44,255 nt of DNA from a virus (lineage: Duplodnaviria > Heunggongvirae > Uroviricota > Caudoviricetes). Within the stretch, counting starts at the first letter, position 1. Each line of letters opens with the position of its first letter. Location: IMG/VR virus record IMGVR_UViG_2690316062_000005. The stretch is one strand, 5' to 3'. Both the position numbers and the translations under genes were made by a program. This document shows, piece by piece, positions 2,835 through 34,099 of this stretch. The notes beneath the pieces are model-generated. The model was not told the origin of the DNA. It saw only the letters and a list, made by a program, of their open reading frames with translations, and searched no databases.

Positions 2835-5800
2835 TTATGCCTGAGTACGCAGCGCTTCAAGGCGGCGCAGGTCGAAGTCGTTCAGTTCGTCGGTGTAGTC
2901 AGCAGTGATTGGCGCTGGCCATTCACCTGTGTCGAATCCGGTTGCGATATTGCGCATCGCTTTGCGGTACTCGAGCATACCCAGCTCCAGTAGTTCAGCG
3001 GATGCCTCGATGATGGCGATCCAGTGGTAGTTCTCGTCTTTGTTGACGAAAATCCAGAAGAACTGATCCAGCGCTGCGGTTTCGCAGTACATAGCCGCGC
3101 TCAGGTGATAATCACGTTCAATAATTTCCCGGTGTAGCCTGGCGCGCAGGCTTTCCTGCTTAACATTCCACATGCTGATGGTTTTCAGGTCTGCACCTAT
3201 ACGCACGCCATCCAGGTCGATCTCAAGGTCAGGGCGCACACGAACTTCCAAGCCCGTCTCCTCGTCAAAACCAAAGTAGCTCACCTCAACGGCTCGGCTA
3301 GGGTGGGTCAGCAGCATGCCGGCGGTCGGGTGTGCCAGAAGCGCTTTTTGAATATTCAGCGCGGTGCTCAGCTGCTGGCGGGTGACCAGCACTTTTCCTT
3401 CCGGGTTATCGCGCCAGGCATCCAGCAGTTCGTCGGCAAATACGGCATCTGGTTTGACTGCCTTCACGGCCTGGATCATGTCTGCTTTGGTACCGGACAC
3501 TTTCAGTGGTGCCGGTTTCTGTGCTTCCTGAGCCACAAGGTCAGGGTTGATGATTGCCAACTGCTCCAGCAGCGCGTCACGGCTGCCGCTGGTTTTAACC
3601 GGCGGCGGCAGGGTGGCGTTGTACTCTTTAATGCATGCCTTCATTGCCGTCGCCGTCTGCTTCTGGTCACCATCAATACGCTGGAAGTCAGCTGGCAGCG
3701 CCATATAGTTCTGTGCCGTTTCTTCCAGGTTAGCGCCAAGCGGAACCTGCGGCGGCAGGGTGGCGTTGTACTCTTCCAGTAACACCTTGATGTCGTCGGC
3801 AGACAGCAGCGCCGGCAGGCTGGCATTGTGCTCATCGATAAAGGCGCGCAGGGTCGCGGCCGTTGTGAATGCGCCTTCAGGGATCACCGGTTCAACGCTG
3901 AATTCTGCGTCCAGTAGTTCAGGCTGCAACGCCAGCGCATGCACCAAGTTGCCCATGTCCAGCACCGCTGAGCGCTCTTTGACGATGGTTTTCTCTACGT
4001 GGCGCGCATTGAAGTACATCAGCGAAACGCGCGCATCTTTCACCTGGGTTGAGCTGATGCCGTTGGCGGCGTGGTAAACCTCGTTTGGCAGCCCTTCATA
4101 GCGGCCTGGCTCGAAATAAGCGGGATAAACAACAGCTGGTTCGTCAGATTGCGCTTCTGGCTCGGTTTGTGCTGCAACTGGTTCGGTTTGGCTTACAGAA
4201 TCGCTATTTTTGGCGACAGAATCCGTATTCTGGTCTACATCGTCCTTCTGGCTGGTATCTGACTCTTCACCAGACTCCAGACTGCTTTCGCCTGGCTGTA
4301 CTTCATCACCAGCTTGTTTTTCATCACTGACAGTTTCTTGAACCTGCACATTGCTGGTGGTCTCCGTAGCCTTTTTCGTGCCATGAGTTGCTGAGTTCTG
4401 CAGCAAAGCCGTAACGTCGAATATTCCGTTGCCGACATTTTTAACCAGTTCTTGTTCGACTTTCTGCGGTTGTGCTGCCGCTTCCTCTGCGCGGCGGCGT
4501 GCTCCTTCTTCACGCACGCGTTGCAGGTTCTCTTCGTGAGTGCAGAAGGATTTGCGCGGAGACTCCTTACCTTCAGGTTGGGGAATTTCCTGTGCTGCGG
4601 GTTCAGCCTCATGCAACGGCAATAACTCGACCGCGGAATTGAACGCGGCTGTCATGGTCTGGTTAACAAATTCCAGGTGAGCGACAGGAGTTAAATGAAT
4701 ATTTTCCGGTGCGATACGTACCAGGTTAAAAATAGCCGTGCGGTTAACACCCAGAACGCCTGGCTGATTGCGCAGGATGTTGCTCCATGATTTCCATGGT
4801 TCTTCTTTTTTGGTCACGATTTCTTTAGCGCGACGAAGAATGCTGCCCGGGATCTCGAAGTGGTTGAAGTCCATAGGCAGAAGGGCACACGCAATCTCTA
4901 AATCGAGAGTGTCCAGTGTGTGGTGTGCGTCAGGTCCACGGTCAGTGACGTAACCGCCGTCGGCATTAGTGCCGGAATCAGTACGCTGCACACTACTGAT
5001 GCGATTACCGGCGGCCCATTCGCGAACGAGGATACCGCGGTCGATGTGATCTGTAGCGAACCACAATTTCAAAAACTGGATTAAGGTTGCGAGTTCAGGG
5101 ATTTTTCCATCGACAGGGAAGACTTTCTTAACGGCATTCACGACTTTATGAATATCGTGCTCAATGGCTTTTTTGAATGCTTCCACATTCTCAGCTGCCA
5201 GCAGCAGGTTCTGGACGTACGCGTCATCGGTGTCCATCTCAAGGCGGACAATCTCATTTTTCTGCCCTGCGTCGATGTGATAGAGATATTCACCATCACC
5301 GATGAACTGAGCCAGTACGCGCTGGCGGAATGGCAGGGTGGCAACAACGATCAGGTTCGGTTGCTGTGTCTGCTGGGATTGCTCTTCGGTATCGACTTCA
5401 CCATCAACGACGCCACCTTCTGCCCGGCCGTTCTCGTCGGTCTGGATACCGTCCTCAACAGTGAGATCTTGACCCGTTGTAACGTCAGCAGCGTTGCTGG
5501 TTTCAGTTTTGAGCAACTGCAACTTACCACTGCGCCAGTCTTCTACCAGTTGATTGCGGTCACCGGCATCGGTGTTCACCCAGTCAGACATGAATGCAGC
5601 GATCAATCTTGGTTCGTGCTCTTCGTCTGGTGTGAAAATGTCCTTAACCGCCCGAATCATTTTCCACTCAGCATTCAGGCTGAGTTTGGCGGTCGCGGGC
5701 ACATCGTTCCTTGCCACAAGCAGGCTATGGAGATATGTATTGCCTTCATCCAGTGACATTTCGCTGGCAGCCAACTGCTGCTCTTTAGTGACGTGGGTTT

Positions 5801-15495: not shown

Positions 15496-16579
15496 CTTTG
15501 CTGAGTATCGTGGGGATAAGCTCAAATTAGCCAGAATGGCTGTTGGGCTCTCCTGCGAAGAGTTAGCGGAGAAAATTGGTAAAACAAAACAATTCGTTAG
15601 CAAATTGGAAAAAGGGTTTAAACCATCAGAACAGTTGTTAGAATTAATCTCATCTGCGCTGATGATTAAATCTGATTTCCTATTTACTGAACGAAAATAT
15701 GCTTTAGAAAGCGATGTTTGCCATTTTCGGAGTAAAAAATCGAGAACCCAAACATTAACCAATAGTGTTCTGGCAAGGGCGGAGATTCTTAACATTATAA
15801 TCTCTGCCGTTGAGGGAGAAATCGAGTTTCCTGATGTTTTCATACCTGAGCACCCCGGTGCTGAATTGCTGACTCCAAATGATATTGAACGTGTAGCGGA
15901 AGACTGCAGAAGAGCATGGAACTTAGGGCTGGGACCTATATCCTCAATGGTCAAACTGGCTGAGAGTTTGGGGGTTATTGTTGCTCATGTGACAGGAGTG
16001 GATGACCGCGTAGATGCTTTTACTGTTCATAACAACAGGCCAGTAATCATCCGAAATAACGTCAAAAAGAGTATATGCAGATTCCGATCAGATTTAGGTC
16101 ACGAATTGGGGCACTTGGTTATGCACGAAGGTATAACCACAGGAGATAAAGTGACTGAATCGCAAGCGGATCGTTTTTCAAGCGCGTTGCTAGTTCCTCG
16201 ATTGTCCTTTATTAAAGAGTTTCCCCGTATACGAGGAAGACAGTTCGATTGGAACGCCCTAGTTGAGTTTAAGCTTCGGTGGAAGATTAGTCTTAAAATG
16301 TGCATTTACCGAGCAACAACTCTAGGCCTGCTGACGCAGGAGCAGGCAAGAACAGGTTATATGCATTTGAACTCTAAAGGATATACGAAAGTTGAACCAG
16401 GAGATGAATTTATTCGCCCGGAAGAACCGAGTATGTTAGCTGAGGCGATTGAAATGCTGGATGATGCAACATGGATGAGCATTCTCATGAAAACTGGTTT
16501 AAGCCAGGAGTTGGTTAGGGAGTTATTCTCGGTAAACCGCCCACTGTCAAATCCAAGAAATCTACTTCAACTGGTTTGA
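15476..16579 (+). CDS. XRE-family HTH fused to ImmA/IrrE-type zinc metallopeptidase (COG2856-like)
   Basis: 367 aa; N-terminal HTH (LARMAVGLSCEELAEKIGKTKQFVSKLEKG); HEXXH zinc-binding motif in DLGHELGHLVMHEG. Confidence 0.8.
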   Translation: MEHQVNDFAEYRGDKLKLARMAVGLSCEELAEKIGKTKQFVSKLEKGFKPSEQLLELISSALMIKSDFLFTERKYALESDVCHFRSKKSRTQTLTNSVLARAEILNIIISAVEGEIEFPDVFIPEHPGAELLTPNDIERVAEDCRRAWNLGLGPISSMVKLAESLGVIVAHVTGVDDRVDAFTVHNNRPVIIRNNVKKSICRFRSDLGHELGHLVMHEGITTGDKVTESQADRFSSALLVPRLSFIKEFPRIRGRQFDWNALVEFKLRWKISLKMCIYRATTLGLLTQEQARTGYMHLNSKGYTKVEPGDEFIRPEEPSMLAEAIEMLDDATWMSILMKTGLSQELVRELFSVNRPLSNPRNLLQLV

Positions 16580-27703: not shown

Positions 27704-27967
27704 ATGTTCAACCGGAACACCAGCCTGCTTGCCGGCGCAATGACTGACGATCAGCTCAGGGATGCGCTTGCGAAAGCTCAGCAGGCGTACATTGATTTAG
27801 CAACCGGGAGCCACGGTGTTTCGTTTTCCTATACGCAGGGAGACGGGACGCGATCAGTGTCCTATCAGCAAAGCACCCTGGCTGATCTGCTGGCCCTGAT
27901 TCAACTTCTGCAGGCGCAACTGGGGATTATCTCTCGTCCCCGGAAACCAGCGAGGTTTAGATTCTGA
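27704..27967 (+). CDS. Head-tail joining protein gpW-like
   Basis: 87 aa between terminase and portal, as lambda W. Confidence 0.55.
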   Translation: MFNRNTSLLAGAMTDDQLRDALAKAQQAYIDLATGSHGVSFSYTQGDGTRSVSYQQSTLADLLALIQLLQAQLGIISRPRKPARFRF

Positions 27968-29604
27968 TGAATAAAGTACAGATACTGGGCTCTGATGGGC
28001 AGCCGTTGCGACAGCAGCGTCCCTCTATGCTGGTGGGGGGGAGCCGCGTACCTTATGACGCAGCTGACTCTTTCAGCGATCAACTGGCGAACTGGCAACC
28101 CGCGCTGTGGTCCCCGGACAATGAAATTAACATTTACCGGGATCGCATCGTGTCCCGCGCACGCGATCTGGTCCGTAATGACGGCTGGGCAAACGGTGCG
28201 GTCACACGTCTGCTGGATAATGCGGTTGGTGCCAACTTCCGCCCCATCATGAAACCCGATTACCGTGTTCTCAGAATGATCACCGGAAACAAGGCGTTTG
28301 ATGCGTCCTGGGCGGAAGAGTACGGAAAAGCACTGGACGGGCACTGGCGGACCTGGAGTAACGATCCTGGCCGGTATTGTGATGTTGAACGAAAACTCAC
28401 CGTGTCGCAGATGTTACGCCTGGGATTTCGTCACAAGCTTATTGACGGGGATGCTCTGGCCATTCTCCAGTACAGAACTGACAGGCTTGGTCCCGGAAGA
28501 GGGCGTTACGCCACCACGGTACAGATTGTCGATCCTGACCGCCTCAGTAATCCTCAGCAGAATTTCGATATGCCAAATGTCCGTGGTGGCGTTGAAATTG
28601 ATGCGGACGGTGCGCCGGTTGCTTACCACATCAGGGAGGCCCATATCGGTGACTGGTGGAGCGGGGCTAAAACCATGACGTGGCAGCGTATCCCGCGTGA
28701 AACTGACTGGGGCCGCCCGCATGTGGTTCACGATTTTGATCATGAGCGTGGCGCGCAGCACCGTGGTAACGGCATCCTGACTCCGGTTATTCAGCGTCTG
28801 AAAATGCTGGTGAAGTATGACCAGAGTGAGCTTGAGGCAGCAATTCTTAATGCCATATTTGCCGCTTACATTGAGTCACCCTATGACCCTGCGATGGTTC
28901 AGTCTGCCCTGGGCGAGACCTATGACGAGTCGGAGTTAGGCACTTATCAGGACGGGCGTGTTGAGTTCCATAACGATCGGCGTCTGACACTTCAGAATGG
29001 TGCCCGAATGCCCATTCTTTATCCTGGTGAGAAAATCACGACGGTTAACGCGGCGCGGCCCTACAGCAATTTTGAAGTCTTCGAATCTGCTGTTCTCCGT
29101 AATTTTTCTTCAGGAACAGGGTTGTCCCCACAGCAGGTCACCCAGGACTGGTCTGACGTTAACTACAGTTCTGCACGCTCCTCGTTGCTGGAGGCATGGA
29201 AAACACTGACTCGCCGCCGGGACGATTTTTCTACCGGCTTCGCTCAGCCCATTCTCACCGCCTTTGTTGAAGAAGTTCACGACAATGAGGATTTACCCCT
29301 GCCCGCAGGCGCACCTGATTTTGTTGACGCCAGAGCCGCGTATTCTCGCGCGCGCTGGATGGGGCCAGGGCGCGGCTGGGTGGATCCGGTTGCAGAGAAA
29401 AAAGGCGCCATTCTTGGTCTGGATGCCGGACTTTCCACCCTCGAGATTGAGGTGGGTGAAAACGTCGGTGAAGACTGGGAAGAAGTGCTTGATCAGCGCC
29501 AGAGAGAAATTGAGTCATGTCTTAAACGCGGATTACCGCTTCCGAGCTGGGCACAGGCTGACCAGTTTGCGAGCCAGACCATTACCGATCCGGAGGAAAA
29601 GTGA
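27967..29604 (+). CDS. Portal protein (lambda gpB family)
   Basis: 545 aa; ATGA coupling; position and size of lambda B. Confidence 0.8.
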   Translation: MNKVQILGSDGQPLRQQRPSMLVGGSRVPYDAADSFSDQLANWQPALWSPDNEINIYRDRIVSRARDLVRNDGWANGAVTRLLDNAVGANFRPIMKPDYRVLRMITGNKAFDASWAEEYGKALDGHWRTWSNDPGRYCDVERKLTVSQMLRLGFRHKLIDGDALAILQYRTDRLGPGRGRYATTVQIVDPDRLSNPQQNFDMPNVRGGVEIDADGAPVAYHIREAHIGDWWSGAKTMTWQRIPRETDWGRPHVVHDFDHERGAQHRGNGILTPVIQRLKMLVKYDQSELEAAILNAIFAAYIESPYDPAMVQSALGETYDESELGTYQDGRVEFHNDRRLTLQNGARMPILYPGEKITTVNAARPYSNFEVFESAVLRNFSSGTGLSPQQVTQDWSDVNYSSARSSLLEAWKTLTRRRDDFSTGFAQPILTAFVEEVHDNEDLPLPAGAPDFVDARAAYSRARWMGPGRGWVDPVAEKKGAILGLDAGLSTLEIEVGENVGEDWEEVLDQRQREIESCLKRGLPLPSWAQADQFASQTITDPEEK

Positions 29605-30467
29605 ATCTACCCCATCTGGCCCAGCGATTATTTAACACCCCGCTGGCGCTGCACCCGAGTAAAGCCGAAGTCATCATGGCATCCGTAATGGACCGATTTG
29701 GTATCAGTAAAATCGAATCTTCTCTTGCCATGGAGGATGACTGGTACGGATATGACGATAACCGGGGACGTGAATCCCGTAGTGATCCGGGTTATGACAA
29801 TGTGCTGGGTGTCGCCGTCATCCCGATATGCGGAACGCTGGTGCAAAAACTGGGCAGTCTGCGTCCGTACAGTGGAATGACAGGGTATGACGGCATTCGT
29901 CAGGCGTTTCTTACTGCGATGGAAGATCCCGACATTTCGGGCATTTGCCTGGATATCGACTCACCCGGCGGCGAGGTCGCTGGATGCTTCGATCTGGTTG
30001 ATGTCATTTACGGCTCCCGGGGGAAAAAGCCTATCCATGCCATTCTGACGGAAAGCGCTTATTCCGCTGCGTATGCCATTGCCAGTGCAGCGGACCGGAT
30101 TTCTGTTCCGCGCACCGGCGGAGTGGGTTCTGTGGGTGTGATCACCATGCACCTTGACTGGACGCAGCGGATTAAAGATGACGGTCTTAAAGTTACGATC
30201 ATCACCTATGGATCCCGCAAGGCTGAAGGTTCGCCGCTGAGAGAGTTGTCAGATGAAGCTCTGGCCGCCATCCAGCAGGACATTAACACCATGGGCGAAT
30301 TGTTTGTGAACACTGTTGCCAGAAACCGGGGGATTAGCGCAAAGGTTATAAAAAGTACCCAGGCCGCCTGTTTTATGGCTGCTGATGGCGTTGAAATTGG
30401 ACTGGCTGATGAGGTGTGTCCTCCTGACGCTGCGTTCAAAAACTTACTTGAAAAAACAGGAGCCTGA
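29601..30467 (+). CDS. Prohead protease / minor capsid protein C (S49, ClpP-like)
   Basis: 288 aa; GTG start after GGAGG RBS; S49 peptidase-like core (GGEVAG ... SAAYAIASAADRI). Confidence 0.75.
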   Translation: MNLPHLAQRLFNTPLALHPSKAEVIMASVMDRFGISKIESSLAMEDDWYGYDDNRGRESRSDPGYDNVLGVAVIPICGTLVQKLGSLRPYSGMTGYDGIRQAFLTAMEDPDISGICLDIDSPGGEVAGCFDLVDVIYGSRGKKPIHAILTESAYSAAYAIASAADRISVPRTGGVGSVGVITMHLDWTQRIKDDGLKVTIITYGSRKAEGSPLRELSDEALAAIQQDINTMGELFVNTVARNRGISAKVIKSTQAACFMAADGVEIGLADEVCPPDAAFKNLLEKTGA

Positions 30468-30468
30468 A

Positions 30469-31059
30469 ATGGCAAAGAAAAAGACGTTTAGTTTTGCTCA
30501 CCTCATTGGTCTTGGCCCTTCCGCTTCTGAGGAAGAAGAGGATAAAAAAGCCAAAAAAGCGAAAGCCCGTCGCGCGGAAGAGGACGAGCGCGAAGATGAT
30601 GCCGATGATGATGAGCGCGACGACGACGCGGAAGAAGACGAACGCGACGATGATGCTGAAGATGACGGCGATGATCCGGATGCGTCAGAAGATGATGATT
30701 CTGAAGACGACGGCGACGACGATCGCAAAGAGAGTAAGGCGGTAAAAAATGCACGCGCTGCTGAGCGTAAACGCTGCGCCCGTATTTTCGGCAGTAAGCA
30801 TGCAGCTGCGAATCCTTCACTGGCCGCGTCACTGGCTTTCAATACCGGGATGAGTTCTGCGGCAGCAATTAATGTCCTAGCCTCTTCGGCTCCGGCCGCA
30901 GCCGCATCTCAGCCATCCCGTAAACGCTCTCTCGATCAGCGTATGCAGGAAAGCCACCAGGTCCGGCTTAATCCGGATAGCGGACAGAAAGAGACCGGAA
31001 AGTCTGCGCTGGTAAGTAAAATGACCGGCCTCTACAACTCCACAAGAGGAGAGAAATAA
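30469..31059 (+). CDS. Acidic scaffolding-like protein
   Basis: 196 aa from ATG with AGGAG RBS; long Asp/Glu low-complexity repeat; position between protease and decoration/capsid genes. Confidence 0.55.
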   Translation: MAKKKTFSFAHLIGLGPSASEEEEDKKAKKAKARRAEEDEREDDADDDERDDDAEEDERDDDAEDDGDDPDASEDDDSEDDGDDDRKESKAVKNARAAERKRCARIFGSKHAAANPSLAASLAFNTGMSSAAAINVLASSAPAAAASQPSRKRSLDQRMQESHQVRLNPDSGQKETGKSALVSKMTGLYNSTRGEK

Positions 31060-31463
31060 TGGATCAGTTTGGTCAGAATGCGTTTGCGCCTGGCATGAAG
31101 AGCGCGCTGTTTGTTCCGGATCAGCTTGTCGCTGGCACGCTCCAGCTGGTGACTGACACCGGGATCATTACGGGCGGTGCCTTTAAGCGTGGTACTGTCC
31201 TGGGCCTGGTGGCTGCCAGCGGGAAATACACGCAATGTGTGAAAACGGCTGAAGATGGCAGTCAGTTACCCGTTGCTATTCTGGTTGATGATGTTGATGC
31301 ATCGTCTTCCGATCAGAACGGCGGCCTGTATCTGATGGGGGAATTCAACCAGCACCGAATTATTTTTGATAACTCCTGGACGACCGCTGACCTGAAAAAA
31401 GCGCTCCGACCGCTGGCTATCTTCCTGAAAGACAGTGACCAGGCACCTGTAACCACCTCCTGA
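31059..31463 (+). CDS. Head decoration protein (gpD-like)
   Basis: 134 aa directly upstream of major capsid gene. Confidence 0.55.
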   Translation: MDQFGQNAFAPGMKSALFVPDQLVAGTLQLVTDTGIITGGAFKRGTVLGLVAASGKYTQCVKTAEDGSQLPVAILVDDVDASSSDQNGGLYLMGEFNQHRIIFDNSWTTADLKKALRPLAIFLKDSDQAPVTTS

Positions 31464-31560
31464 TTTCCCCCACGGCTCTCCTGACGAATGCTTTAACCGG
31501 CAGGGGCTGGCTCGTTTAAATTTTTTGCCAGCTGCGGCTGGCACTATCAAGAGACTGAAT

Positions 31561-32610
31561 ATGGAAAATATTTTTGATACCAGCGTGCTGGTGCAGGTTG
31601 TTCCTAACCTGAAAACCAGTCAGAACTGGCTGCTCGATCGCTTCTTCCCGAATGTCGTGACTTACGAGACTGAAGAAGTGGCGATTGATGTTGATGTCGG
31701 CCTGCGTCGTATGGCGCCGTTCGTCTCCCCGCTGGTGGAAGGTAAGCTGGTCGAATCCCGTAAATACCAGACCAATACCTTCAAACCGGCATACATCAAA
31801 GATAAGCGCGCGCCGGACCTGCGCAAACCTATCCGCCGCCAGATTGGTGAGCGTATTGGCGGGGAATATACCGCTGCCGAGCGCGAAATGCTGAACCTTC
31901 AGTTTGAAATGACTGACCAGATTGACATGATCAACCGTCGTCTGGAATGGATGGCGGCGAGTGCGCTGGTGTCTGGGACCGTAACCGTCGCCGGGGAGGG
32001 CTATGAAACTAAGGTGGTGGATTTCGGGCGTGCTTCGGATCTGACCATCACTCTTAGCGGCTCGGATAAATGGCCACTGACCGTTGCAGCTGGCGCTACC
32101 AATACCCAGCCATCAGATGACATTGAAATCTGGCAGACTACTTTCCTGAAAGAGTCCGGCTCTGTCGCCACGGATCTGGTCTTTACGAATAAGTCATGGC
32201 GTGCATTCCGACTGGATACCACCATCAAGGATAACGCCATTACATTCCCGGCGCTGAGCCCGTTTGGTAACCAGATTAACGCCGGCCCACAGGTAATGAA
32301 GGGCGCAATTTATAAAGGGCGCTGGGGTAACTTTGACCTCTGGTTATATAACGACTGGTTTATTGACCCGCTGGACAACGTCGAGAAGCCTATGATCCCC
32401 GATGGCGCTGTCATTATGAGTGGTGCCGATCTGATGGGTACCCGCGCCTTTGGCGTTATCCTGGACCCGGCTTTCAACTACGGTCCGCTGGCTTATGCGC
32501 CAAAATCCTGGGTGAAAGAAGATCCAGCCCAGCGTCTTATCCTGATGCAATCCTCCCCGCTGGTTATTCCGAGCCGGGTAAATGCATCCCTCTGCGCAAC
32601 GGTGGTCTGA
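31561..32610 (+). CDS. Major capsid protein (lambda gpE family)
   Basis: About 349 aa from ATG 31561 (MENIFDTS...); upstream in-frame extension spans a hairpin and is unlikely coding. Confidence 0.8.
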   Translation: MENIFDTSVLVQVVPNLKTSQNWLLDRFFPNVVTYETEEVAIDVDVGLRRMAPFVSPLVEGKLVESRKYQTNTFKPAYIKDKRAPDLRKPIRRQIGERIGGEYTAAEREMLNLQFEMTDQIDMINRRLEWMAASALVSGTVTVAGEGYETKVVDFGRASDLTITLSGSDKWPLTVAAGATNTQPSDDIEIWQTTFLKESGSVATDLVFTNKSWRAFRLDTTIKDNAITFPALSPFGNQINAGPQVMKGAIYKGRWGNFDLWLYNDWFIDPLDNVEKPMIPDGAVIMSGADLMGTRAFGVILDPAFNYGPLAYAPKSWVKEDPAQRLILMQSSPLVIPSRVNASLCATVV

Positions 32611-32611
32611 T

Positions 32612-32992
32612 ATGGCAAAACAACCTAATACCGGGCTGGCTGATGATCTGAATGCAGAAGGATCTGCCAAAGACGGCCTGAGCGTTGACAACCTGAATGC
32701 TGGCGATAACACCCAGGAAAAACAGCCTTTGAGCAAAACAGATGATGCCGAATTGTCTGTTGATGACGATGGTGGTGACGAAAAATCCGGAGACACTGAA
32801 TCGCAGGAGTATGTGGTGTTGAAAGGGAATTGCATTCGTCATGACGGGGAGATGTACCGCGAAAATATGCGCATCCCTGTAACCGGCAAAGATGCTGAGC
32901 GTCTTCTGCAGTCCGGCGTTATTGCTGATGTTGATGTGCTTCGTAAGCGAGTTCTTGCTTCTCAGCCATCAGTTTCAGTTACGACAGGGTAA
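32612..32992 (+). CDS. Hypothetical head-associated protein
   Basis: 126 aa; acidic N-terminal half; position after the capsid gene. Confidence 0.45.
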   Translation: MAKQPNTGLADDLNAEGSAKDGLSVDNLNAGDNTQEKQPLSKTDDAELSVDDDGGDEKSGDTESQEYVVLKGNCIRHDGEMYRENMRIPVTGKDAERLLQSGVIADVDVLRKRVLASQPSVSVTTG

Positions 32993-32996
32993 TGAC

Positions 32997-33356
32997 ATGG
33001 GCGTGGACTGGGATTCTCATCTTCTGAGTCCGCTGCATGATGTCTTTGGCGATGAGCACGAGTACCGTCCACGTAACGGTACTCCTTTTACAATTAACGG
33101 GATTTTTGACCGTGGTTATGCGCAGGTTGCTGAAAACCTTGATGGCGATTCAGAAATTAACACCTCCAGCCCGATGTTGGGTGTGCGCGATGCTGAATTT
33201 CGCAAGCTGGGTAAATCGCAACCTGCTGTATCTGACCGGGTATTTATAAAGACGGTCGGTGGTCACATCATCAATCAGTTATTTGTTGTGTCAAACGTCG
33301 AACCCGACAGTCATGGCGGATCTCGTCTTGTCCTCAATGTGGTAAAACCGCGATGA
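32997..33356 (+). CDS. Head completion / head-tail adaptor-like protein
   Basis: 119 aa from ATG 32997; positional assignment. Confidence 0.45.
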   Translation: MGVDWDSHLLSPLHDVFGDEHEYRPRNGTPFTINGIFDRGYAQVAENLDGDSEINTSSPMLGVRDAEFRKLGKSQPAVSDRVFIKTVGGHIINQLFVVSNVEPDSHGGSRLVLNVVKPR

Positions 33357-33898
33357 ATTCAGCAGCGATACGGCAAATGGTTGTCACTGCACTAACCGGG
33401 ACAACCAGCGCGGGCGACCGCGTATTCTCTCCACGCGACTGGTCAACTTCACCAGATATGTATCCTGTGTTGTTGGTTCAGACGCCTTTTGAACAGAAAA
33501 AATCACAGGGGCGTAATACCCCTGCTTTTACCACCCTCACCACTGTCAGGATCACTGGGCGCGTTCAGGAGTATGACGGCGATACAGTGGATGATGGAGC
33601 CATGCGGGCAGAGCTGGCGCTTGAAAGCCTTCGCGAGCAGGTGGAGCGCGCGGTGATCAACAGCTACGAACTGACGCGGAATATTCAGAAATACGCGGAA
33701 GTTCGTTCAACCATCAATGTTGATTCAGAAGGAGAGGCCCATATGGGGCAGCTTCTTTTCGAGATCGACATAGAGCATTACCAGGGGCCGGAAGATTTTT
33801 ATCCTGTCCAGTCGGTTCCCCTTGAGGGCATGGATATTGCGGTCGATATGCCAGACGGCACAGTTAAACCGGGTATCAGCCTCAATCTTCAGGAGTAA
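33353..33898 (+). CDS. Putative tail completion / neck protein
   Basis: 181 aa; ATGA overlap; position before sheath. Confidence 0.45.
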   Translation: MNSAAIRQMVVTALTGTTSAGDRVFSPRDWSTSPDMYPVLLVQTPFEQKKSQGRNTPAFTTLTTVRITGRVQEYDGDTVDDGAMRAELALESLREQVERAVINSYELTRNIQKYAEVRSTINVDSEGEAHMGQLLFEIDIEHYQGPEDFYPVQSVPLEGMDIAVDMPDGTVKPGISLNLQE

Positions 33899-33901
33899 TC
33901 C

Positions 33902-34099
33902 ATGTTTGTTAAGCCGAACAACGGGCTCAGCGTTCGCTGCCCCGTCAAGGGCATCCCATTGCCTAAAGAGGGTGCTGAAGTACCTGACAATATTTTCTGG
34001 CGTCGCCGTCTGAGCGATGGGGACGTGATCCTCTCTAAAAAGGATGAGGGCGCGCCAGAGAAACAATCATTACCTAAAAAAGCGGGAGAAAATGAATGA
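33902..34099 (+). CDS. Small tail-region protein (DUF2635-like)
   Basis: 65 aa immediately upstream of sheath gene, as in Mu-like tail clusters. Confidence 0.45.
   Translation: MFVKPNNGLSVRCPVKGIPLPKEGAEVPDNIFWRRRLSDGDVILSKKDEGAPEKQSLPKKAGENE

Follow-up and report, generated by a model that had tools for sequence, protein, structure and literature searches.

Acidic, length-variable tract in a Nu3-like candidate scaffolding protein of an Escherichia coli prophage

An acidic tract in the head operon

The virus record IMGVR_UViG_2690316062_000005 of IMG/VR, a Caudoviricetes sequence of 44,255 nucleotides (nt) hereafter called the window, has the host context of an Escherichia coli prophage. Between the genes for an S49 head-maturation protease and a head decoration protein, it carries an open reading frame (ORF) that encodes a putative scaffolding protein of 196 amino acids (aa; Table 1). 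The product is an electrostatic dipole, in which an N-terminal motif and a Lys/Arg block are followed by about 50 residues of nearly pure Asp and Glu and then by a basic helical C-terminal domain. A longer version of the ORF, from an upstream ATG at 30385, is also in the ORF list, but the start at 30469 is preferred because an AGGAG lies 6 nt upstream of it and because RefSeq has the 591-nt gene in identical prophages. The caggag motif is kept in all ten loci compared, those of Serratia phage BZS1 and Citrobacter phage phiNP among them.

The acidic tract, EEDEREDDADDDERDDDAEEDERDDDAEDDGDDPDASEDDDSEDDGDDD, contains 37 Asp or Glu among its 49 residues (76%) and three Arg, for a net charge of −34. 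This composition is far beyond chance; the runner-up, taken over all six-frame ORFs of 80 aa or more in the window, is a 49-aa stretch with 15 Asp or Glu. The first-pass annotation had placed an Asp/Glu repeat in a scaffold-like protein at 30540–30730, and the repeat is borne out: the DNA quoted there, gatgatgatgagcgcgacgacgacgcggaagaagacgaacgcgacgatgatgc, lies at approximately 30604–30656 and encodes the quoted peptide, DDDERDDDAEEDERDDDAEDD, in the frame of the ORF. The interval given also takes in a neighbouring basic block, KKAKKAKARRA (30544–30576). Ser-rich and Arg/His-rich ORFs on the minus strand (30498–30842 and 30503–30832), together with an ORF in the +2 frame (30494–30745), are shadows of the GAN-rich coding frame.

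On either side of the tract, the protein is better conserved. The N-terminal segment, MAKKKTFSFAHLIGLGPSASEEEEDKKAKKAKARRA, comprises a MAKKKTFSFAHLIGLG motif, a run of Glu ending in Asp (EEEED, 30529–30543) and the basic block, and its alignment columns are invariant or nearly so across 48 homologs. In an AlphaFold2 model built from a 48-sequence alignment, five helices are predicted in the C-terminal domain, at residues 90–107, 116–126, 130–139, 155–167 and 178–192, with a predicted local distance difference test score (pLDDT) of roughly 50–84 in a model of low overall confidence (predicted template-modelling score, pTM, 0.22). Across most of residues 16–82 the pLDDT is below 50, and secondary structure starts only at residue 90; the tract is thus predicted to be intrinsically disordered.

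The tract also looks repetitive at the DNA level. Tandem Repeats Finder reports a period of 27 nt with 3.4 copies, 76% matches and a score of 112, and a pairwise repeat search returns 39-nt copies spaced by 27 or 54 nt with 72–87% identity. When the codons of the tract were shuffled 5,000 times, neither the period-27 autocorrelation of this single DNA sequence (p = 0.24) nor its best local DNA repeat (p = 0.16) was significant, as opposed to the amino-acid period of 9 and 18 (p = 0.006). Repeats come easily in so biased a composition, and the case for repeat units therefore rests on insertions and deletions seen by comparison. From the single sequence, the low-complexity tract is certain and its repeat structure only suggestive.

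A Nu3-like gene product

The order of genes, portal, S49 protease, ORF, decoration protein D and major capsid protein E, matches that of phage lambda, B, C(Nu3), D and E, such that the ORF fills the place taken in lambda by gpNu3 and by the C-terminal third of gpC, between the S49 protease domain and D and E. The lambda scaffold, Nu3, has C, B and E as interaction partners, and C degrades it (PMC3224144). The ORF belongs to phrog_6382 (E = 3.5e-77). It further matches phrog_17040 (E = 5.4e-10) and positions 298–463 of the 583 positions of phrog_53 'head maturation protease' (E = 1.4e-6), the part that follows the protease domain in fusions. The gene order and the matches to phrog_53 and phrog_17040 support the 'scaffold-like' wording of the earlier annotation. 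Similar to Nu3, a low-complexity linker precedes the C-terminal domain, and the C-terminal helices of the two proteins can be aligned (AERKRCARIFG...GMSSAAAINVLASSAP...SLDQRMQ against AENSRIMGIL...GMTVKTARRILAAAP...ALDRLMQ), with marginal similarity. Synteny is strong, and homology is weak but consistent; from both we conclude that the ORF is probably the Nu3 counterpart of this phage.

The arrangement differs from that of lambda in several respects. Whereas nu3 is nested in frame within gene C and translated from an internal start, with gpC carrying the scaffold domain covalently, the scaffold here has an ORF to itself, in the +1 frame and behind a Shine–Dalgarno sequence of its own. Coupling is tight: a single nucleotide separates the protease stop TGA (30465–30467) from the scaffold ATG, and the stop codon of the scaffold gene runs into the start of the decoration protein gene (TAATG, 31057–31061). 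The protease, which is 36% identical to lambda gpC residues 7–283 (E = 2e-60) and lacks the Nu3 part, is 288 aa long and, unlike that of lambda, has no covalently attached scaffold domain. A +1 frameshift that would fuse protease and scaffold into a gpC-like protein is unlikely, as the open stretch upstream is not conserved (the scaffold frame is open for 39–53 codons in E. coli alleles, 1 in BZS1 and 4 in phiNP) and the AGGAG of the scaffold gene is. A 306-aa 'fusion' among the protein matches (P0002) is a frameshifted short-read contig. Sub-threshold Pfam matches of the scaffold ORF to Nop14 and CDC45 are compositional and stem from the acidic low complexity.

The closest known relatives are the members of the phrog_6382 (WP_001472856) family, such as p06 of Serratia phage vB_SspM_BZS1 and phiNP_023 of Citrobacter phage phiNP. 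These proteins share the gene order and the combination of an acidic tract with a basic C-terminal domain, and differ in tract length and repeat units; all members are functionally unannotated. Our search of the literature returned nothing specific on phrog_6382-type proteins or on acidic repeats in Nu3-type scaffolds.

Length variation among close relatives

A protein search against a collection of 5.8 billion proteins gave 740 matches; among the 120 listed, lengths range from 160 to 208 aa, with the 306-aa frameshifted call excluded. In 121 close homologs, the tract, bounded by conserved anchors, spans 13–52 aa with a median of 47 and falls mostly at 46–50 aa. On flanks at least 97% (mostly 100%) identical to those of the window protein, eight tract lengths occur: 49, 46, 45, 41, 38, 34, 31 and, perhaps, 13 residues. 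This natural allelic series on identical flanks would be useful for measuring how much charge the scaffold needs. The proteins of variable length come from metagenomes and short-read assemblies.

The DNA of four length variants was aligned to the window (Table 1), and the 54-nt and 45-nt deletions and the threefold 21-nt expansion are all bounded by direct repeats. The junction of the exact 54-nt deletion in the 178-aa allele lies inside one repeat, and the second, 45-nt-spaced repeat pair brackets the 45-nt deletion of the 181-aa allele, while its left copy seeds the threefold 21-nt expansion of the 192-aa allele. The 178-aa allele is found in independent samples on backgrounds that differ synonymously (L006 and L007), which disfavours an assembly artefact. 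Judged by their junctions, the insertions and deletions are the marks that slippage during replication, or unequal recombination, leaves at short direct repeats. That the repeats are real units is shown mainly by comparison, as relatives differ by whole units. In the BZS1 homolog (L012, 2210–2809), the whole basic-plus-acidic block is duplicated (KEKGKKAKSRRAEE... twice); unequal recombination would therefore act also on units larger than the 27-nt repeat. Within the tract, codon 67 (30667–30669) shows a recurrent Gly-to-Cys change, GGC to TGC, that turns 'DDGDDP' into 'DDCDDP' (window versus L003, P0001, P0004 and P0006). Some alleles amplify a 7-aa unit that bears the Cys, so that the protein, elsewhere with a single Cys, can have as many as three.

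The module is present in 58 of 5,426 complete E. coli genomes, and its alleles fall into three classes. In 31 of the 58 genomes the gene is at least 98.6% identical to that of the window, and all 31 copies are 591 nt long. A further 24 genomes belong to an HS-type class, from which both genes retrieved are also 591 nt. The remaining three have a 570-nt allele in which a Glu-rich EEEEEETA repeat replaces the tract; protein identity is 82%, and the differences lie nearly all in the tract. In this EEEEEETA allele (L001/L002 4001–4570, E. coli GN05064 and ABWA45; also P0042, P0047 and P0072), the N-terminal 38 and C-terminal approximately 100 residues are almost unchanged. By this comparison the tract seems to be either a spot where divergence concentrates locally or a cassette exchanged by recombination, and it is not hypermutable at the scale of strain divergence.

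A contingency locus, in which rapid slippage would switch or tune a phenotype within populations as in phase or antigenic variation, is suggested by the repeat-unit indels among near-identical alleles. Unit lengths of 27, 21 and 45 nt, however, are each divisible by three, and the copies are only 72–87% identical; no frameshifted tract allele was seen among the variants compared, all of which are in frame, and the frameshifted gene calls P0002 and P0099 are broken outside the tract. Moreover, each of the three E. coli allele classes is of a single length in the genes retrieved, and a scaffold, being internal, is not encountered by hosts or by immunity. We regard a contingency locus as very improbable. 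The first-pass proposal that slipped-strand events make the region length-variable is thus supported as an evolutionary pattern, with eight lengths and junctions in direct repeats, and is not supported as a fast or switching locus. The comparison of repeat copy number across related prophages that it recommended gives the same divided answer, variable on nearly identical flanks and fixed within the 31 E. coli genomes.

Conserved charge across distant homologs

When the gene was compared by megablast with 50,697 phage records, no match was returned, and tblastn against the same records found phiNP and BZS1 only, over the C-terminal domain only, as the low-complexity filter masks the tract. In a phmmer search of proteins clustered at 50% identity, with the C-terminal domain alone as query, 322 cluster representatives reached E ≤ 0.001; they are mostly 160–260 aa long, with the domain at the C terminus.

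Charge was analysed in 136 distant homologs, taken as representatives at 50% identity, with statistics that ignore phylogeny. The region N-terminal to the domain has a net charge of −10 or below in 124 of the 136 (median −18), and the C-terminal domain is net positive in 131 (median +8). The units that make up the acidic regions are unrelated, among them DDPDAE, EDEDPKPDAE (five copies), EDPENDPDAE (five copies), DDVDDVK, EEEEEETA and EDKPEGEDEKPEDLE, which implies that repeats arose repeatedly while acidity was kept.

This pattern bears on whether the tract is an inert flexible linker, of which length and flexibility alone matter and whose acidity is a by-product of GAN-rich repeat expansion and of solubility. 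Consistent with such a linker, the tract is predicted to be disordered and varies very freely in sequence, repeat unit and length, alleles that lack 18 aa of it are common, and the corresponding linker of lambda Nu3 is mostly Ser, Thr, Ala and Gln. A neutral linker would drift in composition, however, whereas acidity persists in the great majority of distant representatives with units that arose independently, and length in this clade of close homologs is concentrated at 46–50 aa. We give the inert linker a low probability. The outcome that the first-pass annotation had set against its own proposal, an invariant length in a simple flexible linker, is found in one half: a disordered linker is predicted, and its length varies while its acidity is conserved in distant homologs.

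A probable polyanionic spacer in a candidate scaffolding protein

We favour, as the probable explanation, that the tract serves as a polyanionic, intrinsically disordered spacer in a scaffold of the lambda Nu3 type, encoded by a temperate enterobacterial phage, with charge under selection and sequence free. The basic C-terminal helices would attach to the major capsid protein on its inner face, to the portal or to both, and would self-associate, as do lambda Nu3 and the C terminus of P22 gp8. The acidic tail would face the procapsid lumen, where it could keep the scaffold soluble and extended, keep nucleic acid off the basic C-terminal domain and, by charge repulsion, help to expel the scaffold or its fragments after S49 cleavage as DNA enters. 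Selection would act on charge and disorder as opposed to sequence, and the GAN-rich imperfect direct repeats would allow slippage or unequal recombination to add or remove in-frame units. The exact sequence, and the length within limits, being free, such slippage products would survive, and selection would hold the tract mostly near 46–50 residues in this clade. The sequences show the composition, predicted disorder and gene position, the unit indels at repeat junctions and the acidity kept across the family; the scaffold function of the ORF, the binding of capsid by its C-terminal domain and the role of charge in solubility and exit are inferred.

A parallel is the scaffold of phage P22. There, the first 40 residues carry negative charge, lack order and remain mobile inside procapsids, and the authors of that work propose that they aid release during packaging (bioRxiv 10.1101/539965); at its C terminus, a basic helix-turn-helix holds the N-arm of the coat protein by electrostatic contacts (PMC9962691). 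The architecture of P22 gp8, an acidic disordered N-terminal region combined with a basic helical C-terminal element, is the same as that predicted here, although there is no detectable sequence relationship and the acidic segment of gp8 consists of approximately 40 residues of ordinary sequence rather than an Asp/Glu array. Furthermore, the P22 scaffold is recycled intact without a protease, whereas the present phage encodes an S49 protease.

Several observations weigh against the polyanionic spacer. The similarity to lambda Nu3 is marginal by BLASTP (30% identity over 69 aa of the C-terminal helices, E = 0.061), and hhalign, which aligns the same C-terminal region, gives E = 0.0074 and a probability of 5%. 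No scaffold family in Pfam or NCBIfam matches the ORF, RefSeq and PHROG assign it no function, and the published BZS1 paper does not discuss the scaffold gene. The linker of lambda Nu3, rich in Ser, Thr, Ala and Gln, is only mildly acidic as compared with the tract here, which shows that some Nu3-type scaffolds do without extreme acidity. Finally, the 31-aa tract allele is widespread, and the 13-aa allele, from a 0.5x-coverage contig, is shorter still; much of the tract may be dispensable.

A different use of the same charges would be autoinhibition by an intra- or intermolecular 'DNA mimic', in which the tract pairs with the basic blocks of the protein itself (KKAKKAKARRA and the +13 C-terminal domain) until assembly or proteolysis, and either masks them from nucleic acids or from premature capsid binding, or drives a coacervate-like scaffold core. 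The C-terminal domain and the flanking blocks are strongly basic, and across the 136 homologs the counts of Asp/Glu and Lys/Arg co-vary (rho = 0.83; as fractions, 0.69), the net charges of the N-terminal region and the C-terminal domain are anticorrelated (rho = −0.65, a value that depends on the domain boundary chosen), and the BZS1 duplication joins basic and acidic blocks in one unit. The whole proteins nevertheless stay net negative in 131 of 136 cases (median −10), with acid in excess of what neutralisation needs, and joint expansion of mixed-charge low-complexity sequence could explain correlations computed in disregard of phylogeny. We consider autoinhibition, in either form, unlikely though by no means far-fetched; the co-variation of charge is compatible with self-neutralisation or condensation, which cannot be separated here from the polyanionic spacer. 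In a more elaborate scheme, the tract would be a charge-tuned 'DNA placeholder': the scaffold, as a block polyampholyte, would form a coacervate-like procapsid core, the polyanion would sit in the capsid interior or on basic sites that DNA takes later, until incoming DNA displaces it by competition, and slippage would adjust tract length or charge to match the basic charge of the partner domains. To this scheme we assign only a small chance.

Acidic disordered tails compete with DNA for basic domains in HMGB1 and, as C-terminal tails, in T7 gp2.5 and T4 gp32. These are DNA-binding proteins with demonstrated contacts between tail and domain, and the scaffold here resembles them in having an Asp/Glu-rich segment, predicted to be disordered, joined to a basic domain. 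A related suggestion in the first-pass annotation, that the acidic tract is 'DNA-mimic-like', is not supported if taken to mean a folded anti-restriction mimic of the Ocr or ArdA type. Extreme negative charge is all that points to such a mimic or to an injected internal protein. The gene lies in a late head-assembly operon between protease and decoration genes, the tract is linked to a Nu3-like domain, and it is predicted to be disordered, without a folded array of carboxylates. A Foldseek search of the AlphaFold2 model against BFVD found nothing at E ≤ 0.001, although the low confidence of the model makes that search uninformative, and a search of the PDB with the family profile gave compositional matches only (prunin and Toc34, E ≥ 0.1). 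We rate such a mimic or injected protein as barely credible. Loose electrostatic mimicry, with the polyanion competing with DNA for basic surfaces, is possible and hypothetical.

With the polyanionic spacer as the preferred explanation, a widespread enterobacterial prophage gene that is 'hypothetical' in RefSeq and PHROGs can be annotated as a probable Nu3-type head scaffolding protein, and its odd Asp/Glu repeat would then be the acidic, disordered arm that scaffolds typically have. An acidic spacer is an ordinary feature of scaffolding proteins and will not surprise specialists in phage assembly. The tract would, in addition, provide a clean natural case of a disordered region that keeps its charge as slippage changes its sequence, repeat unit and length.

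Neighbouring genes and the virion module

The features of the locus and the aligned length variants are collected in Table 1.

Table 1 Features of the candidate scaffold gene, its length variants and the surrounding head genes.
Feature	Position in window (nt)	Strand	Description
Putative Nu3-like scaffolding protein ORF, 196 aa	30469–31059	+	591 nt; RefSeq 'hypothetical protein'; phrog_6382, function unassigned
Shine–Dalgarno sequence AGGAG	30458–30462	+	6 nt before the scaffold ATG; read from the sequence
Conserved N-terminal segment	30469–30576	+	Residues 1–36; net charge +5
Acidic low-complexity tract	30577–30723	+	Residues 37–85; 37 of 49 Asp/Glu; predicted disordered
Basic, predicted helical C-terminal domain	30724–31056	+	Residues 86–196; 20 Lys/Arg and 7 Asp/Glu, net charge +13; conserved Nu3-like part
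Imperfect 27-nt tandem array	30577–30667	+	9-aa unit A-[ED][ED]-D-E-R-[ED]-D-D; 3.4 copies; Tandem Repeats Finder, repeat search, alignment
Direct repeat copies	30583–30602 and 30637–30656	+	GACGA[GA]CGCGA[AC]GATGATGC; bracket the 54-nt deletion of the 178-aa alleles
Second direct repeat pair	30649–30675 and 30694–30720	+	GATGATGCTGAAGATGACGGCGATGAT and GATGATTCTGAAGACGACGGCGACGAC; spacing 45 nt, 23 of 27 identical
178-aa allele			Loss of exactly 54 nt (2 x 27), with its junction within the repeat GACGA[GA]CGCGA[AC]GATGATGC; L006, L007
181-aa allele			45-nt deletion between the 45-nt-spaced repeats
192-aa allele			Three tandem copies of the 21-nt unit CTGAAGATGACTGCGATGATC, 'DDCDDPE'; one copy in the window
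160-aa allele			108-nt deletion; single 0.5x-coverage contig (ERZ25038517)
Portal protein gene (lambda B family)	27967–29604	+	Pfam Phage_portal_2 (PF05136), E = 6.6e-100; phrog_21
S49 head-maturation protease gene	29601–30467	+	Pfam Peptidase_S49 (PF01343), E = 1.6e-27; phrog_53, E = 2.9e-110
Head decoration protein D gene	31059–31463	+	Pfam HDPD, E = 3.2e-20
Major capsid protein E gene	31561–32610	+	Pfam Phage_cap_E, E = 2.4e-60; identical module annotated in NZ_AP021894

For the major capsid protein, the mechanical ORF begins at a TTG, 31525 (361 aa), as opposed to the ATG at 31561 that RefSeq gives for the identical gene (349 aa, MENIFDTS...). The 3′ end of this gene is overlapped by 29 nt by a 136-aa ORF (32582–32992; phrog_24496, function unassigned), the RefSeq version of which has 126 aa and starts after the capsid stop. 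This small ORF, which has no Pfam or NCBIfam match, holds the second most acidic stretch of the window, the 15 Asp or Glu in 49 aa given above as the runner-up.

The early regions of the window and of the NZ_AP021894 prophage are not collinear (ungapped identity approximately 55% overall), and the structural module alone is common to them. The early region of the latter has a 92-nt tRNA-Ile (GAU) at 5176–5267, confirmed by ARAGORN and compared with approximately 15644–15735 of the window, and no tRNA was found anywhere in the window; this difference is irrelevant to the acidic tract. The virion module (window 27967–34099; NZ_AP021894 14593–34782) is a mosaic of a lambda-type head (gpW, portal, S49 protease, D and E) with a contractile tail. 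Its tail part opens with DUF2635 (window 33902–34099), followed by genes for the sheath, the tube, a DNA circularisation protein and baseplate J/gp46/gp47-like proteins, and the same pairing of a lambda-type head with a contractile tail is found in Serratia phage BZS1 and Citrobacter phage phiNP.

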